Below are positions 13,295 through 46,080 of a stretch of 64,000 nt of DNA, one piece after another. Location of the stretch: assembly GCA_041891055.1 (NCBI GenBank), contig CP169074.1, forward strand, positions 416,001 through 480,000. The letters run 5' to 3'. The DNA comes from Halorutilales archaeon Cl-col2-1. GTDB taxonomy: Archaea > Halobacteriota > Halobacteria > Halobacteriales > Afararchaeaceae. The notes below the pieces were generated by a model. That model was not told the DNA's origin and ran no database searches. It saw only the letters and a program-made list of their open reading frames with translations. A program made the translations under genes and the position numbers. Within the stretch, counting starts at the first letter, position 1, and each line of letters opens with the position of its first letter.

Positions 13295-14743
13295 CTTTCT
13301 GCGAGGAGAGAATCCCGCCCTTCAGGGCGGGAGTGAATCCGACAACTCCCTCACAACCCACTGTCGATGGCAGGCCGGATATTCAACGCTCATCCGTACC
13401 ATTAAGTAAGTTTATCGACATAGGCTATGTATGGCGATTGAGGTCACGCGAACCTACATTGGTTCCATCCAGAACCAGCGACAGGTTTACCATGGCCTCG
13501 ATTCGCTCGGAGACTCCGCCTCAAAAATCTGGAACGTCGCACGCTGGACAGCTGACCGAATCTGGGGCGAAACAGGCGAAATCCCAGACGAAGGAACGCT
13601 CAAAGCGTACATGAAGAACCGAGAGTGCTGGAAAGATTTGAACGCACAATCCAGTCAGAAAGTCATCGAAGAACTTTCCGACGCTTTCCAGTCATGGTTC
13701 GACCTGCGACACAAGGACGACAAGGCGAATCCGCCCGGCTACCGCAAACACGGCGACACTCGCCCCAAGAGTACGGTCACGTTCAAAGAAGACGGTTTCA
13801 AACACGACCCAGAGAACAACCGCATTCGCCTCTCAAAGGGAAAGAACCTGAAAGACCACCGCTCGGACTTCCTGCTCTGTGAGTACCAGACCCGCCCTGA
13901 CGTTGACCTCTCAGAAGTAACCAAGGTGCAGAACGTTCGCGCAGTCTGGAATGGTGAGGAGTGGGAACTGCACTTCGTCTGCAAAGTCAGCCTCGAAACC
14001 AACGACTCTGCTGGCAACGGAGTGGCAGGAATCGATCTCGGAATCAAGAACATCGCCACGGTCGCCTTCCCCGACGAATACGTTCTCTACCCCGGCAACT
14101 CACTCAAAGAAGACAAGCACTACTTCACCCGAGCAGAGTACGATACAGAGGGTGAGAACGGGCCGTCCGAAAAGTCGATGTGGGCACGTCGAAAACTCAC
14201 AGAGCGCGAGACACACTTCTACCACACGCTGACAGACACCATCATCACAGAGTGTGTCGAACGCGGTGTCGGCACGCTCGCAGTGAGTTGGCCCGAAGAC
14301 GTGCATGAGTCGGATTGGGGAAAGACCGGGAACAAGAAGCTGCACTCGTGGGCGTTCGACCGCATCTACCAGTACCTCGAATACAAAGGCGAGATTCGCG
14401 GTGTCGAGGTGCTGAAGGAGAACGAGTGGGACACCTCGAAAACGTGTTCACGATGTGGTGACGACACGAAGTCAAACCGTGTCGAGCGTGGACTGTACGT
14501 CTGCTCGTCGTGTGAAATGGTAGCCAACGCGGATTGCAATGGGGCGGAGAATATGCGGCAGAAGATAACTCTGAGTCCTCATGGTGAGGATAGGAGTAAC
14601 GGCTGTGTGGCACAGCCATCGACACACTTGTTCGACCGCGAGAGCGGGACGTTCAACACGAGAGAACAGGTCGTGTCGTAGACCGGCAAATATCCCACCT
14701 GCGGTACGGGAAGCCCCGCCGTTCACGGCGGGGAGGATGTCAC
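13295..14743 (+). mobile_element. IS200/IS605-family tnpB-only (IS1341-type) element 1
   Basis: Left hairpin TCCCGCCC-TTCA-GGGCGGGA 13313-13332; right hairpin CCCCGCCG-TTCA-CGGCGGGG 14714-14733; ends in TCAC; inserted 3' of CTAT with no TSD; no tnpA. Confidence 0.92.
13431..14681 (+). CDS. tnpB: TnpB RNA-guided nuclease
   Basis: PPGYRK, GIDLG (RuvC-I), TSKTCSRCG..CSSC Zn ribbon, NADCNGAENM (RuvC-III). Confidence 0.95.
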   Translation: MAIEVTRTYIGSIQNQRQVYHGLDSLGDSASKIWNVARWTADRIWGETGEIPDEGTLKAYMKNRECWKDLNAQSSQKVIEELSDAFQSWFDLRHKDDKANPPGYRKHGDTRPKSTVTFKEDGFKHDPENNRIRLSKGKNLKDHRSDFLLCEYQTRPDVDLSEVTKVQNVRAVWNGEEWELHFVCKVSLETNDSAGNGVAGIDLGIKNIATVAFPDEYVLYPGNSLKEDKHYFTRAEYDTEGENGPSEKSMWARRKLTERETHFYHTLTDTIITECVERGVGTLAVSWPEDVHESDWGKTGNKKLHSWAFDRIYQYLEYKGEIRGVEVLKENEWDTSKTCSRCGDDTKSNRVERGLYVCSSCEMVANADCNGAENMRQKITLSPHGEDRSNGCVAQPSTHLFDRESGTFNTREQVVS

Positions 14744-17923: not shown

Positions 17924-20617
17924 ATGTCCTTGACAGATATAGACACAGAGACTGACACCGAAGAAGACGACTCTACGTACGACCACGACGCAGTAGAGGA
18001 GAAGTGGCAGGAGAGATGGGAGGAAGAAGGTGTATTCGAGGCGGACGACGAGGGCGACGACAAGTACTACGTCCTCGGTATGTTTCCCTACCCCTCGGGA
18101 AAGCTCCACATGGGACACGTCCGCAACTACTCGATAACCGACGCCTACGCGCGGTACAGGAGGATGAAAGGGCACGAAGTCCTACATCCGATGGGATGGG
18201 ACTCGTTCGGACTCCCCGCCGAGAACGCCGCCTTAGAACGTGACACCAATCCGAGGGACTGGACTATCGACTGCATCGACTCGATGCACGACCAGATGGA
18301 GGCTATGGGGTTCGGCTACGACTGGAGCCGTGAGATAAAGACCTCCGACCCCGACTACTTCCGTTGGAACCAGTGGCTCTTCAAACGGTTCTACGACGAG
18401 GGTCTCGTCGAGAACAAGGAGGGCGAGGTCAACTGGTGTCCTTCGTGTGAGACAGTCCTCGCGAACGAACAGGTCGAGGACGACAGATGCTGGAGATGTG
18501 AGACCCCCGTCGAGACTAGGATGCTCGACCAGTGGTACTTCGAGATCACGGAGTACGCCGATGAGCTCCTAGAGTACCTCGAAGAGCTCGACGGCTGGCC
18601 CGACAGTGTCACGGAGATGCAGAGGAACTGGATAGGAAAACAGGAGGGCGCGAGGGTCGACTTCGAGGTCGAAGGCTACGGTGACGTCGAGGTCTTCACG
18701 ACACGTCTCGACACTATCCACGGAGCGACCTACATGGCACTCGCTCCCGAACATCCCGTCGCCGAGGATATCGCCGACGGAAACGACGATGTCGCCGACT
18801 TCATAGACTCGGTCGATGAGGACAGGGAAGTCGGACCCGATGCCGAGAAGAACGGCGTCTTTACCGGAGAGTACGCCGTAAACCCGGCGACTGGTGACGA
18901 GATACCCGTATACGTCGCCGACTTCGTCATGATGGACTTCGGCACGGGAGCCATCATGGCAGTCCCTGCACATGACGAGAGGGATCACGAGTTCGCCGAG
19001 AAGTACGACATAGAGATCAGACAGGTCGTCGAGCCCGAGGACGGTGACGTTGACGCTGAAGACGAGGTGTTCACTGAAGACGGCGTCCTCGTCAACTCGG
19101 GAGGATACGACGGAGTGGAAAGCGAGGAGGCGCGCAAGGCGATAGCCGAGGATCTCGACGCCGCGGAGGAAGATACCGAGTACAGGCTACGTGACTGGCT
19201 CATATCGAGACAGAGGTACTGGGGAACACCGATCCCCGTCGTCCACTGTGAAGACTGCGGGGAGGTTCTCGTCTCCGACGAAGAGCTTCCGGTCGAACTC
19301 CCCGAGTTCGTCCAGTCGACGGGCAACCCCTTAGAAGAGGTCGACGGCTTCGTCGAGACCGAGTGTCCCGAATGTGGCGGCGAGGCGAGACGTGAGACCG
19401 ACACGATGGACACATTCGTCGACTCGTCGTGGTACTTCCTGCGTTATACCTCTCCCGACTACGACGACGCCCCCTTCGACGTCGAGACCGCGAACGACTG
19501 GATGCCCGTAGACCAGTACGTCGGCGGCATAGAGCACGCAGTGATGCATCTACTCTACTCACGTTTCTTCACACACGTCCTCAACGACACCGACCTCGTC
19601 GACGTCAAGGAGCCCTTCGAGAACCTCGTGACACAGGGAATGGTTCTCTTAGAGGGAGAGAAGATGTCGAAGAGCAAGGGCAACGTCGTCTCGCCACAGA
19701 GGATAGTCGACGACTACGGTGCCGACACCGCACGTCTCTTCACTATGGGTGCCGCACTCCCCGAGAAGGACTTCGACTGGACCGAGAAGGGAGTCAAGTC
19801 GAACTACGCCTTCATAGAACGTCTCCACACACTCGTCTCGAACTTCACCGACTACGCCGAGGACGAAGACGACGCCCTAACTCGCGACGGAGCCGCAGAG
19901 AAGTACGTCGAAGCTGAGACAGACGCGACGGTAGAGACTGCGAGCGACGAGTACGAGAACTTCGAGTTCAACCACGCTGTCAGAGACGTCAAGAACCTCG
20001 TCTCTCTCCTCGAACAGTACTCCGAGTACAGGAACGGAGAGCCCGACCCCGAGGTGTTCAGAAGGGGTCTCGAAACCGCTGTCAAGGTACTCGCGCCGAT
20101 CACACCCCATGTCTCAGAGGAGATGTGGGACGAACTCGGAGGAGAGGGTCTCGTCGCCGAGGCGGACTGGCCCTCTGCGGAGGTACCCGACGACTACGCC
20201 CTCGAGGAGAGGCTGATAGAGAACACACGCGAGGACGTACGTGAGATAAGCGAGGTCGCGGGGATAGAAGACCCCGAAGAGATACGTATAATTACCGCGC
20301 CTGGCTGGAAGTACGACGCCCTACAGATCGCGCTCGACCTCGACTCCGACGCCGACGTTATCGGACGTATCATGTCAGAAGACGAAATAAGGAGACACGG
20401 CGACGCCGCCGCGAGCTACGGTCAGTACCTCCAGAAGAACCAGATGAAGCTAGAGGACGAGCTTCCGCCTGAGAGGGAAGCCGAGGCTCTCGAACGCGCT
20501 AGATGGCTCTTCGTGAAGGAGTTCGACGCCGAGATCCGGATTCAGAACGCCGACGAGTCGGACTCCGAGAGGGCGGACAAGGCACGTCCCGGAAAGCCCG
20601 CGATAGAGATAGAGTAA
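17924..20617 (+). CDS. leuS: Leucine--tRNA ligase (bacterial-type core, haloarchaeal form)
   Basis: MFPYPSGKLHMGH (HIGH), KMSKS, DWLISRQRYWGTPIP, archaeal-type tail ARPGKPAI. Confidence 0.97.
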   Translation: MSLTDIDTETDTEEDDSTYDHDAVEEKWQERWEEEGVFEADDEGDDKYYVLGMFPYPSGKLHMGHVRNYSITDAYARYRRMKGHEVLHPMGWDSFGLPAENAALERDTNPRDWTIDCIDSMHDQMEAMGFGYDWSREIKTSDPDYFRWNQWLFKRFYDEGLVENKEGEVNWCPSCETVLANEQVEDDRCWRCETPVETRMLDQWYFEITEYADELLEYLEELDGWPDSVTEMQRNWIGKQEGARVDFEVEGYGDVEVFTTRLDTIHGATYMALAPEHPVAEDIADGNDDVADFIDSVDEDREVGPDAEKNGVFTGEYAVNPATGDEIPVYVADFVMMDFGTGAIMAVPAHDERDHEFAEKYDIEIRQVVEPEDGDVDAEDEVFTEDGVLVNSGGYDGVESEEARKAIAEDLDAAEEDTEYRLRDWLISRQRYWGTPIPVVHCEDCGEVLVSDEELPVELPEFVQSTGNPLEEVDGFVETECPECGGEARRETDTMDTFVDSSWYFLRYTSPDYDDAPFDVETANDWMPVDQYVGGIEHAVMHLLYSRFFTHVLNDTDLVDVKEPFENLVTQGMVLLEGEKMSKSKGNVVSPQRIVDDYGADTARLFTMGAALPEKDFDWTEKGVKSNYAFIERLHTLVSNFTDYAEDEDDALTRDGAAEKYVEAETDATVETASDEYENFEFNHAVRDVKNLVSLLEQYSEYRNGEPDPEVFRRGLETAVKVLAPITPHVSEEMWDELGGEGLVAEADWPSAEVPDDYALEERLIENTREDVREISEVAGIEDPEEIRIITAPGWKYDALQIALDLDSDADVIGRIMSEDEIRRHGDAAASYGQYLQKNQMKLEDELPPEREAEALERARWLFVKEFDAEIRIQNADESDSERADKARPGKPAIEIE

Positions 20618-20639
20618 TCCACCTTCCTAACTCGAAGCC

Positions 20640-20935
20640 AACTCGGAGTCAGCGCAGACATACATTCTCTTATCCTCCGACAGTACTTACGTGCGTGGCG
20701 AGGACTCGCATTTCGGGTCAGTTTGCTCGTCTTGTCTTATCCCTAGCGTGCCTCGAACTGATCATGGACTGGCTGCATCGGCGACGGTAGGACATCAGAC
20801 ACGCTCTATTGGAGGTGCCAGCTCCACAGTGCCCGAACGGACGCTCGCCACGGTTCACGGTGCTGTCGGAGTCGGTTTATCGTCGTCACAGCCGTCTCAC
20901 CTTATCCTCCGAGACTCTTTAGGCTCGCCTAAACC
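20640..20935 (-). ncRNA. Putative structured ncRNA containing a bulge-helix-bulge-bounded 166-nt intron/circRNA (20688-20853); transcript ends are estimates
   Basis: Nested inverted repeats 20675-20686/20860-20871, 20690-20693/20856-20859 and 20694-20702/20844-20852, with two opposed 3-nt bulges; no credible ORF in the gap. Confidence 0.65.
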
Positions 20936-20967
20936 ACATGTCGGATGTTTTTAGCCAAGCCTAAAAA
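20918..20967. promoter_or_regulatory. Tandem DtxR/IdeR/MntR-type palindromic operators
   Basis: TTTAGGCTCGCCTAAA (20918-20933) and TTTTTAGCCAAGCCTAAAAA (20948-20967), both TTTAG-N6-CTAAA, 32 bp apart. Confidence 0.7.
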
Positions 20968-21039
20968 CCTTCCGAAGTCCGTATCTCCAACTCGTCGTCG
21001 TTGATGTCGAAAGCAAGTCTTCGCTTCCGGCTTTTCGAC

Positions 21040-21273
21040 TCAGCTTAGGAGAGAGTAGCCGAAGTAGACTCCGGCTATAATTAGAAGGACTCCGACAGAC
21101 TGGACGAGACGTCTAACACGGAGGGAAGGTTCCGAGTCAGAGCCGTACTCTCCCCGTCTGTCGGTGGGAAGACGTCCTCCGAGGTTGACACGGACTACTA
21201 TCTCGGGGAACCTCAGAAACACGAGACCTACTACTACGCCGATTACTGCCGAAAGAAGGGTTCGTATATCCAT
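21040..21273 (-). CDS. Small two-TM membrane protein
   Basis: Two hydrophobic helices; 7 bp downstream of htpX on the same strand. Confidence 0.7.
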   Translation of the reverse strand: MDIRTLLSAVIGVVVGLVFLRFPEIVVRVNLGGRLPTDRRGEYGSDSEPSLRVRRLVQSVGVLLIIAGVYFGYSLLS

Positions 21274-21280
21274 CTCAGTC

Positions 21281-22108
21281 TCAGTAGCTACGCAGGCGTT
21301 CTATCCTCTTCTCGACCGGAGGATGAGTAGCGAACAGACGTGCGATACCGACTCCGTCGCCGAAGATACAGAGCGCGTTGACATTGGCGTCGACCTCGGA
21401 TTTACGTGAACGCTCGTTTCCGCGGCTTATCTTTTCGAGGGCACTCGCAAGAGGCTCCCCACCGCCGATCTCGGATGCTGCGTCCCTGTCGGCGACGTAC
21501 TCCCTGTAACGTGAGATGGCGAAGACGACTGTCATCACCAGCATCTGAACCACCTGTCCGACTACTATCGCCATGAAGAAGTCGGCGAGGTCGTTGTCTC
21601 CGGTGAGGAGAACAGCCCACTCAGCCGTTATAGCGACTATCGAGGCTATGCCTTGACCCAGAACCATCATAACCACGTCACGGTTACGTATATGTGCGAG
21701 CTCGTGAGCGAGGACTCCCTCCACCTCGTCGGAGTTAAGCCTGTTGAGGAGCTCCTGTGACACGACGACAGTTCCGGCTCCCTTGCGTCCGACCGCGAAG
21801 GCGTTCGGTACCCCCATCTTAGCCACCATCAGACGCGGCTTCTCTATTCCCATGTCGTTGGACAGCGACTCGACACGTCTGTGTATCTCAGGGGCTCGAC
21901 TCTCGGGAAGGTCATCGGCTCCTACGCTTCTGAGAGCCGCCCACTTGCCGATCTTGTACTGAAAACCGACCAGTCCTATGCTTCCGACGAGAACTAAGGG
22001 GAGTGAAAGACCGAAGACACCCATCGCCACAGCGGCTGCAACAGCATACAGTGCAAAGAGGACTGATCCGGCTATTAGCATCCGAATCTTGAGTCCAAGA
22101 TGTCGCAT
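21281..22108 (-). CDS. htpX: HtpX-like M48 zinc protease
   Basis: PNAFAVG, HELAH, SRYREYVAD, THPPVEKRI. Confidence 0.93.
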   Translation of the reverse strand: MRHLGLKIRMLIAGSVLFALYAVAAAVAMGVFGLSLPLVLVGSIGLVGFQYKIGKWAALRSVGADDLPESRAPEIHRRVESLSNDMGIEKPRLMVAKMGVPNAFAVGRKGAGTVVVSQELLNRLNSDEVEGVLAHELAHIRNRDVVMMVLGQGIASIVAITAEWAVLLTGDNDLADFFMAIVVGQVVQMLVMTVVFAISRYREYVADRDAASEIGGGEPLASALEKISRGNERSRKSEVDANVNALCIFGDGVGIARLFATHPPVEKRIERLRSY

Positions 22109-44816: not shown

Positions 44817-46080
44817 ACGAGAGTATCTCGCTCTCGGCTTCACGTATGTGTTCTGAGAAGGTGGGCTGAGAGATCCCGAGCATATCGGCGACCTCGTCGG
44901 AGGTCTTACGTCTCGGATACTCGAAGTATCCGCTGAGATAAGCCGTCTCCAGGACTTCCGTCTGTCTCCTCGTCAGACCGTCAGTCGGTGAGGACACGAC
45001 ACGTCTGTCTCCGGATACGTCTCCGTCTGTGTCTTCACCCACGATCCCGCGTCCTCTGGGTCTTCTCGCGGGATCACGTCTTGCTAGTATCTCCACTCCT
45101 TCGTACTCCGACTCTAACGACTCCATTAGACCCGACACGTCAGACTCGGGCGGAAGACGGGCTACTACTGTTCCCTCGCCGTCGTCAGCGGCTGCCGTCT
45201 CAAGCTTGCCCCCGTACTCGGCTATGACTGCGGCTATACACGGCTTCGAGGTGACTACAGCCCATCTACATCTACTCTCGGTCGCGGTGTCATCCGGGAC
45301 GGCTATCCTCGCGTACTCGTCAATCTTCCCGAACCCCTCCGCTATCTCACGTATCTCAGAGTCGGCGGTACCGTCTACCTCTACTGTGAGTATCTGGAGG
45401 AATCTACCGTCAGGACGTTGTACCATGCTTTCGATCTCGACAGTCGAAGACAGCTCTTCCGAGACATAGACAGAGAAGAGACGTGAGTCCGAGACACCGA
45501 ACTCAAGCTCGACGTATCTGTCTGACAGGAGGCTCTTTCTCGTCTCGGCGGAGCTTATAGTGAATCCTACGAGGTCGCTCAGGCTCTCAAAGGTCTGTAC
45601 CTCGTCGTCGCCGAAACGTCTCTCGGAAACCACACCGAGGACACCGTAGGGAACGTCCTCGAAACTTATCGGAACTGTGGCTATGTACTCAGTCTCGGCG
45701 TCGGTACCCGTGTCTGTGTCGTCGGTATCTGTATCTGTGTCTGTGTCTGGCGTACCGCGGCTCTCGACGACTCGTCTCTCACGTCTCCCGGCGGATTCGA
45801 GGACGGCTTCCTTCTCTGTGTCTGATAGGAACTCTCTTGGATCTGTCTCCCCTTCGACGCCGTACTCACGTAAGACGACCTCGTTCCGATTTTTCACCTC
45901 AGAAACCCAGGCTCGTGTGTACGTCGCTGTCGAGGTAAGAGTTTCACAGACTGCTTCCTCTATGCCCTCACGTGTCCTCCTCTCAAGTATCTCGTCGGAA
46001 CTCTCACGGAGTATGTCTGTCACTACATACTGTAGTAGTCTCGTGACGAAATACGTTCCCACTCCTTCTCGGATAGACAA
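44800..46080 (-). CDS. Bat-like transcription regulator (GAF + HTH_10)
   Basis: GAF (ATVPI..YGVL) and LTRRQTEVLETAYLSGYFEYPR..T..EVA..LGISQPTFSEHIR. Start uncertain. Confidence 0.88.
   Translation of the reverse strand: MSIREGVGTYFVTRLLQYVVTDILRESSDEILERRTREGIEEAVCETLTSTATYTRAWVSEVKNRNEVVLREYGVEGETDPREFLSDTEKEAVLESAGRRERRVVESRGTPDTDTDTDTDDTDTGTDAETEYIATVPISFEDVPYGVLGVVSERRFGDDEVQTFESLSDLVGFTISSAETRKSLLSDRYVELEFGVSDSRLFSVYVSEELSSTVEIESMVQRPDGRFLQILTVEVDGTADSEIREIAEGFGKIDEYARIAVPDDTATESRCRWAVVTSKPCIAAVIAEYGGKLETAAADDGEGTVVARLPPESDVSGLMESLESEYEGVEILARRDPARRPRGRGIVGEDTDGDVSGDRRVVSSPTDGLTRRQTEVLETAYLSGYFEYPRRKTSDEVADMLGISQPTFSEHIREAESEILSSILGG

Follow-up and report, generated by a model that had tools for sequence, protein, structure and literature searches.

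The gap between two convergent genes on the chromosome of Halorutilales archaeon Cl-col2-1 contains, on its minus strand, a motif of the bulge-helix-bulge (BHB) type in the strict hBHBh' form, located outside any tRNA or rRNA gene, and this hairpin is no chance match. The window analysed here is a stretch of 64,000 nucleotides (G000:C1:416001-480000, C1 being the 1.9 Mb chromosome) from a 2.06 Mb genome of the haloarchaeal class with 55% GC, and the motif sits inside the 422-bp gap separating leuS from an open reading frame (ORF) for a two-helix membrane protein of 77 amino acids. We consider the case evenly balanced that this element is a lineage-specific substrate of the splicing endonuclease EndA which, without a host gene, would give rise to a 166-nt circular RNA in vivo. 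The further notion of a free-standing “intron without gene”, i.e. an autonomous transcription unit that would serve only to offer a processing stem to EndA and RtcB and would represent a dedicated, selected circular-RNA gene of new origin in a single haloarchaeal lineage, appears somewhat unlikely.

The motif fits the strict hBHBh' definition in its 4-bp central helix, in its bulges, of which either strand has one of 3 nt positioned 3' of its part of the central helix, and in the helices present on both sides (Table 1). In the outer helix, counted outwards from the central one, two pairs are followed by a C.A mismatch in third place and then by nine further pairs. The unconstrained minimum free energy fold of the minus strand yields this structure, and partition-function calculations in contexts of 226, 328 and 480 nt assign a probability of 0.92-1.0 to all helix pairs but C.A, and of 1.0 to the unpaired state of each of the six bulge bases. 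Helices, bulges and coordinates, as well as the length of the enclosed piece, agree exactly with those put forward in an earlier interpretation of the letters alone (hereafter the sequence-only reading). Its claim on handedness also holds: the minus strand fits the strict substrate, whereas the bulges of the plus strand lie 5' of the central helix. As evidence, however, handedness does not stand by itself, since any staggered 3-4-3 DNA hairpin (3-nt bulge, 4-bp helix, 3-nt bulge) is canonical on exactly one strand; for the same reason, it only indicates which strand would be the substrate. The predicted cut positions follow the canonical geometry of tRNA introns at position 37/38 as described in PMC4090602, where the 5' strand of the central helix is assigned to the 5' exon, adjoining the anticodon stem, so that the bulge lies 3' of that strand, as it does at this locus.

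The rarity of the motif was evaluated by a scan of both strands of C1 in which only Watson-Crick pairs were counted, each flanking helix being allowed one mismatch at most and the span being limited to 500 nt. Four 3-4-3 motifs with at least 16 flanking pairs were found, two with at least 18, and one with at least 20. The last of these is the BHB element, with 20 flanking and 4 central Watson-Crick pairs the best short-span 3-4-3 motif of the chromosome. Motifs with at least 16 flanking pairs numbered 0, 0, 0 and 0 in four mononucleotide shuffles of the chromosome and 1, 2, 1 and 0 in four triplet shuffles, and none with at least 18 occurred in any of the eight. Other geometries (central helix of 3, 5, 6, 7 or 8 bp; bulges of 1/1 or 2/2 nt) gave no motif in C1 at 18 flanking pairs or more, and a central helix of 2 bp, which provides a shorter seed, gave four, none of them reaching 20. 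By constrained folding energy (-37.3 kcal/mol) the element ranks second among 109,459 candidates, a measure applied to the real chromosome and not to the shuffles; an earlier pair-count scan that allowed G.U proved too loose, one of three shuffles equalling the target score. An ungapped census of C1 returned only seven inverted repeats of at least 18 pairs within 600 nt, hence the chromosome offers no reservoir of long hairpins out of which the shape might have come by accident. A BHB shape formed by accident from a common repeat type is therefore unlikely.

As an internal control, the scanner, which was designed for this handedness, gave as its top two matches the processing stems of 16S and 23S rRNA (C1:1553702-1555308 and 1555601-1558554, plus strand) in the rRNA operon at C1:1.553-1.559 Mb, where the plus strand is the sense strand, as judged from the tRNA-Ala (1555355-1555426) and 5S rRNA (1558618-1558739) genes that it carries. 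The bulges of these stems are A-rich (AUA/UAA and ACA/AAA), resembling the AAC/UAA of the element. When the BHB scan was extended to 73 other loci (about 300 kb for all 76), no motif exceeded 17 flanking pairs, and no BHB was found downstream of leuS on the antisense strand.

Table 1. Features of the BHB element and its surroundings (window coordinates; helix and bulge sequences as minus-strand RNA)
Feature	Position	Strand	Remarks
leuS	17924-20617	+	Leucyl-tRNA synthetase (LeuRS) domains
Outer helix, 3' strand (GUACUGUCGGAG)	20675-20686	-	Unchanged in congener G001
3' bulge UAA	20687-20689	-	Unpaired probability 1.0; predicted EndA cut 20688/20687
Central helix, 3' strand CACG	20690-20693	-	Read directly and from partition-function fold
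Inner helix, 3' strand (CUCGCCACG)	20694-20702	-	Read directly and from partition-function fold
Interior of excised piece, 141 nt	20703-20843	-	Non-coding, no recognisable motif, structure at chance level
Inner helix, 5' strand (CGUGGCGAG)	20844-20852	-	9/9 Watson-Crick pairs with 20694-20702
5' bulge AAC	20853-20855	-	Unpaired probability 1.0; predicted EndA cut 20854/20853
Central 4-bp helix, 5' strand CGUG	20856-20859	-	Base-paired to 20690-20693 at 0.98-0.99 probability
Outer helix, 5' strand (CUCCGACAGCAC)	20860-20871	-	11/12 pairs with 20675-20686
Predicted excised and circularised RNA, 166 nt	20688-20853	-	Predicted from geometry
11-nt direct repeat CGGAGGATAAG	20901-20911 (upstream copy); 20669-20679 (second copy)	-	Read directly; brackets hairpin
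Hairpin GTTTTTAG...CTAAAAAC	20947-20968	both	8 bp, T5/A5 run, read directly; probable terminator
Candidate promoter, weak BRE/TATA-like match (ACTTCGGAAGGTTTTT)	20963-20978	-	6.9 bits; about 95 nt upstream of hairpin
77-amino-acid two-helix membrane ORF	21040-21273	-	Convergent with leuS
M48 peptidase gene	21281-22108	-	With the 77-amino-acid ORF termed M48-peptidase/77-aa operon

The enzymes that such processing would need are encoded in the genome. EndA is present as a single frame of 353 codons matching PF01974 (tRNA_int_endo) twice, with 85.8 and 26.4 bits, a tandem-domain arrangement which we take to be the alpha2 homodimer type named for Haloferax volcanii, and RtcB is present as well (544 bits). 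The alpha2 EndA of H. volcanii is described in PMC7714728 as strictly requiring the hBHBh' form. Judged by this requirement, every minus-strand transcript covering 20871-20675 would be expected to be cut and ligated. What we infer for this locus is a minus-strand transcript, started at a weak promoter belonging to the element (near 20978-20963) or else resulting from read-through of the M48-peptidase/77-aa operon, that would fold into the strict hBHBh' motif and be cut by EndA after the second base of each bulge. Ligation by RtcB would then yield a covalently closed RNA (20853..20688), and the ligated flanks would close into a hairpin of 12 bp whose loop has 7 nt. The circle would be an exonuclease-resistant small RNA with a largely unstructured interior and, on account of this lack of structure, would probably act, if at all, through its sequence.

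The excised piece, rather than the flanks, is taken as the presumptive product because long helices of 12 and 9 bp on the flanks recall rRNA processing stems and not a 5-bp anticodon stem. In archaeal 16S and 23S processing stems, long helices also flank a 3-4-3 arrangement with A-rich bulges, and there the excised piece is the product, with a circular intermediate. Unlike these stems, the element encloses only 166 nt, which are not rRNA-like, and it shows no sequence similarity to them. An rRNA processing stem was accordingly rejected, the element lying outside the rRNA operon and the enclosed piece being no rRNA.

Several lines of evidence, given in this and the following paragraphs, weigh against a circle made in vivo. 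Shape alone is no proof of splicing, since an exact 3-4-3 hairpin elsewhere in the window is probably unspliced. This second-best motif of C1 (46098..45995, minus strand) has an outer helix of 11/12 pairs, a central helix AGUA/UACU, bulges UCU/CCG and an inner helix of 6/7 pairs, 18 flanking pairs in total, and encloses a piece of 73 nt (46080..46008) at the 5' end of a gene for a Bat-like GAF-BAT-HTH_10 regulator. Splicing would preserve the reading frame from an upstream GUG. In tblastn comparisons with ten homolog loci, homology of the regulator begins at residues 16-23, within the would-be intron (VTDIL vs LNDVV, INEVV etc.), and the unspliced N-terminus outscores the spliced one in all ten; with homology reaching into the enclosed piece and the higher score going to the unspliced form, the piece is probably coding and unspliced. 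Two differences between the window's genome and that of its congener fall in the outer helix, one of them wobble-compatible, the other pair-breaking but synonymous. Going by the homologs, what this hairpin most likely represents is coding sequence, whose fold is accidental or regulatory, rather than an intron. Triplet shuffles contain about 8 motifs with at least 14 flanking pairs and about 1 with at least 16, a roughly five-fold fall per two pairs, from which about 0.2 motifs with 18 flanking pairs are expected per chromosome by extrapolation. Compared with this second hairpin, the BHB element, which has 20 pairs and lies in a non-coding gap, is a rarer case.

The interior of the enclosed piece folds no better than chance: relative to dinucleotide shuffles, z is +0.5 and +0.66 for interiors of 140 and 122 nt, -0.76 for the whole circle and +0.17 for the whole 328-nt region, and exceptional structure is limited to the BHB stem. 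It is here that the sequence-only reading has to be modified. Its hBHBh' geometry, the enzymes it invoked and the absence of a known RNA all stand, but the additional interior helices that it described, and with them a structured circular RNA, fail the shuffle test. It had also pointed to an interior G-U pair formed on the minus strand only; this pair is offset by the C.A of the outer helix, which is G.U on the plus strand, so that wobble pairs favour neither strand. Indeed, the plus strand folds equally well (-80.9 vs -79.4 kcal/mol for the minus strand), with 12/12 pairs in the outer helix when G.U is included.

The relevant molecule could be a plus-strand RNA, with the hairpin being a structure in a long leuS 3' untranslated region (UTR) or part of a bidirectional terminator; the bulges would then lie 5' of the central helix, and EndA would not cut. 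Downstream of the leuS end at 20617, the first plus-strand T5 run occurs near 20955-20960, hence leuS transcripts could span the whole element, and the plus-strand fold is slightly the more stable one, its outer helix being fully paired. Nevertheless, its z value does not go beyond -1.32, an equally good fold being reached by 17 of 200 shuffles, a 25-bp stem around 141 nt does not have the shape of a terminator, and neither strand has a match in Rfam. Moreover, two exact 3-nt bulges spaced 4 bp apart would be left without an explanation, and we regard a plus-strand element as quite improbable.

For the EndA substrate proposed here, the evidence on transcription is also unfavourable in part. 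A promoter matrix was built from the upstream regions of this genome's tRNA genes (consensus AAACCGAAAGATTTAA, located some 43 nt ahead of the mature 5' end). Its best minus-strand match, which includes a sequence resembling a B recognition element (BRE) and TATA box, lies at about the 10th percentile of tRNA sites, and with a background of 1.1e-3 per position for matches of at least 6 bits, ~0.5 would be expected by chance in the 461-nt region. This candidate promoter overlaps the T5-bearing hairpin at 20968-20947, probably the bidirectional terminator of the two convergent genes, and the T5 tract separates the upstream operon from the BHB hairpin. A second hairpin related to the probable terminator, TTTAGG-CGAG-CCTAAA at 20933-20918, is likewise located between the convergent genes. 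From these sequence features, minus-strand transcription through the weak promoter or by read-through is plausible.

Comparison within the family comprises two genomes, that of the window (G000) and that of its sole congener (G001). Homology in G001 extends from leuS to the 3' bulge (98% over window 20600-20691) and then ends. The 3' bulge and the 3' strand of the outer helix are retained unchanged up to the junction with an insertion sequence (IS), which shows that the hairpin's 3' side, at least, is older than the split of the two species. Beyond the junction lies a TnpB gene with OrfB_IS605 and Cas12f-like TNB domains (L002, G001:C16:1-1383). Contig C16 overlaps by 55 nt with contig C6 (L003, G001:C6:1-191), which carries a sot0042 RNA (90.5 bits) that we take to be the omega RNA of an IS200/IS605 element. 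The M48 gene resumes at the equivalent of window position 21688, truncated just after its HELAH motif. The IS200/IS605 element substitutes for window 20691-21687, beginning at the plus-strand TTAC of the 3' bulge. Since G001 has lost the locus and part of the M48 gene to this insertion, the element is dispensable there.

Nor were relatives found elsewhere. A blastn search of 401 genomes of the class recovered only the element's own genome and a 32-nt flank in G001, other matches being at most 54 nt long with E >= 6.9e-4. Derived from this one sequence, a covariance model found, in 151 genomes of the order, the own genome and one plain GC hairpin. No homolog was detected in plasmids or phages, or in 28 metagenome loci beside LeuRS relatives (61% identity at best). 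Exact words looked up in species genomes and viral contigs gave 24, 9 and 0 hits, bacterial or viral and attributable to chance, and of 33 pattern hits 0 were confirmed by the model. The search of Halobacteria for homologs with covarying BHB pairs, proposed in the sequence-only reading, thus returned no homolog.

The start of the congener's IS200/IS605 element exactly at the TTAC of the 3' bulge raises the possibility of a relic or target of mobile DNA, such as a miniature inverted-repeat transposable element (MITE), an IS200/IS605 derivative without genes, a haloarchaeal mobile hairpin repeat of small size, or an insertion between the 11-nt repeats at 20911-20901 and 20679-20669. Several TnpB elements exist in the genome, with 8 matching places in G000. 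In the window itself, a TnpB-like gene at about 13725-14610 is overlapped at its 3' end by an Rfam sot0042 match (14563-14734, plus strand, 98.1 bits); given this overlap, the match is most likely the omega (right-end) RNA of that TnpB element. Halobacterium sot RNAs are treated as omega RNAs in the text of PMC12558985. The BHB element itself is single-copy in its own genome, however, with other matches of at most 32 nt and E >= 0.14, is unmatched in the 401 genomes, plasmids and phages, and has the same GC content as its flanks. It bears no similarity to IS ends, and no terminal inverted repeats occur at the boundaries of the direct repeat. A MITE or IS-derived repeat was rejected on these grounds (one copy, unlike IS ends, direct repeat not beside the inverted ends), and a relic or target of mobile DNA seems to us very improbable. 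As regards the direct repeat, the downstream copy of CGGAGGATAAG overlaps the end of the outer helix, and an alternative fold would be possible in which UCGGAG of the upstream copy pairs with the outer-helix 5' strand.

The most serious rival is a neutral or DNA-level inverted repeat that happens to have the BHB shape, for example a decayed palindrome, with no meaningful minus-strand RNA and no RNA function. Such a repeat could well be an orphan lost in the sister species, lack excess structure in its interior and show no strand preference in wobble pairs or energy, all as observed; the other 3-4-3 hairpin of the window appears to be coding, and triplet shuffles already yield 0-2 motifs per chromosome with at least 16 flanking pairs. 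Yet 20 flanking and 4 central pairs lie well past all eight shuffles, long local inverted repeats are nearly absent from C1 (the seven mentioned above), and seven of the eight other geometries run give none with at least 18 pairs. Furthermore, when 7 nt (one central strand and its bulge) are removed from each arm, one continuous 21-bp hairpin with a single mismatch is restored, so that converting a plain hairpin into the BHB shape requires two mirrored 7-nt additions, for which we know of no DNA-level cause. A neutral repeat is in our view unlikely, if more credible than a plus-strand or mobile element.

Other identities for the element were examined in turn. The Rfam search proposed in the sequence-only reading was run with Rfam 15 covariance models on both strands of 20400-21300, and nothing was found at gathering score or at E<=10. 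ARAGORN detected no tRNA in the window or on the circle; calls made with relaxed settings were rejected as noise, as 167 of 200 random chunks were also called. No tRNA adjoined leuS in 13 of 28 metagenome loci checked. These results, together with SRP and RNase P RNA genes located elsewhere in the genome, confirm the earlier remark that hallmarks of tRNA, signal recognition particle (SRP) RNA and RNase P RNA are lacking. Box C/D RNAs contain a C box RUGAUGA and a D box CUGA with a guide spacing near 12 nt, as well as a kink-turn at the terminus. A box C/D sRNA was rejected, the enclosed piece lacking RUGAUGA or UGAUGA and containing two CUGA (piece positions 56 and 133) without matching spacing; an H/ACA RNA was also rejected, on box content and spacing as read from the sequence. 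Coding was rejected on both strands: the plus-strand ORFs 20503-20790 and 20691-20954 match no Pfam family and encode basic or Ser-rich products, and the minus-strand ORFs, of 21-46 amino acids, are equally basic or Ser-rich, the products of both strands being unlike halophile proteins. Complementarity to possible antisense targets in the own genome is not above chance.

Substrates of EndA outside tRNA and rRNA appear to be very few, those named in the sources consulted being the introns of the cbf5 mRNA and of the HVO_1309 leader, and permuted SRP RNA. The closest parallel is in H. volcanii. Sequencing of circular RNAs in this organism (Schwarz et al. 2020, PMC7714728) is described as having revealed seven BHB-flanked circles, namely two tRNA introns, four rRNA circles and one leader intron of HVO_1309, and the BHB in the HVO_1309 5' UTR, which belongs to neither tRNA nor rRNA, as having been cut in vitro by alpha2 EndA. 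The 5' UTR intron of HVO_1309 (an M24 peptidase gene) and the present element are both strict hBHBh' motifs of haloarchaea outside tRNA and rRNA, and the former is excised as a circle. According to that source, however, the HVO_1309 intron is 46 nt long, lies in the leader of a protein gene and is conserved in sequence among haloarchaea, whereas the element measures 166 nt, lies between convergent genes with no same-strand gene downstream, and has no homolog. A brief look upstream of the two M24 peptidase genes of the present genome revealed no convincing short-span BHB of the HVO_1309 type. The cbf5 mRNA intron of Crenarchaeota is cited in PMC7714728 as a BHB intron outside stable RNA genes; it interrupts a protein frame, unlike the element, which no credible reading frame crosses.

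The haloarchaeal tRNA-Trp intron is presented in PMC12558985 and PMC4090602 as a BHB-excised circular box C/D sRNA of about 100-120 nt that acts in trans. The element would resemble it in being a BHB-excised, circularised small RNA, but has no host tRNA, no RUGAUGA box and no 12-nt box spacing, and neither the tRNA-Trp nor the tRNA-Met intron of this genome is similar to it, the longest common words being 7-10 nt. The permuted SRP RNA of Thermoproteus is reportedly circularised at a BHB by EndA-type cutting and ligation. Here, in contrast, an ordinary SRP RNA is encoded elsewhere in the genome (203.8 bits), and the enclosed piece is too short and does not match the SRP model. A permuted housekeeping RNA was rejected in general, as SRP RNA, RNase P RNA and 5S rRNA are all found elsewhere in normal form and above cut-offs. 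In Halobacterium salinarum, circles labelled “intergenic” are all attributed in the text of PMC12558985 to the rRNA operon, and omega-RNA circles are said to have no BHB. The texts of the Haloferax and Halobacterium surveys (PMC7714728, PMC12558985) report no BHB-flanked intergenic circle outside the rRNA operon, although their supplementary circle tables could hold cases. Titles and abstract openings of the papers returned by literature searches likewise mention no host-less intergenic BHB element.

A further 3-4-3 hairpin is present on both small contigs of the genome, at C3:4130-4166 (minus strand) and C4:2728-2764 (plus strand). It has an outer helix of 10 bp, a central helix CGCG/CGCG, bulges ACC/CUG, an inner helix of 7 bp and a 16-nt loop. 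The two copies differ at 1 of 42 stem bases, in a wobble-compatible manner, and at 3 of 16 loop bases, in AT-rich surroundings with TTTAAA motifs on the flanks. Two roles are conceivable for it, that of a further substrate for EndA and that of an origin hairpin of a plasmid. Taken together with the BHB element, it could hint that this organism uses its splicing machinery for small circles outside tRNA and rRNA.

Should the BHB element prove to be untranscribed, it would serve as a warning that a near-perfect BHB can be a by-product. If, on the other hand, it is processed as proposed, a canonical intergenic motif without a host would demonstrate that EndA can acquire new substrates de novo. The locus would then represent a natural gene whose product is a circular RNA, and would provide a compact natural scaffold for circular-RNA expression in haloarchaea.

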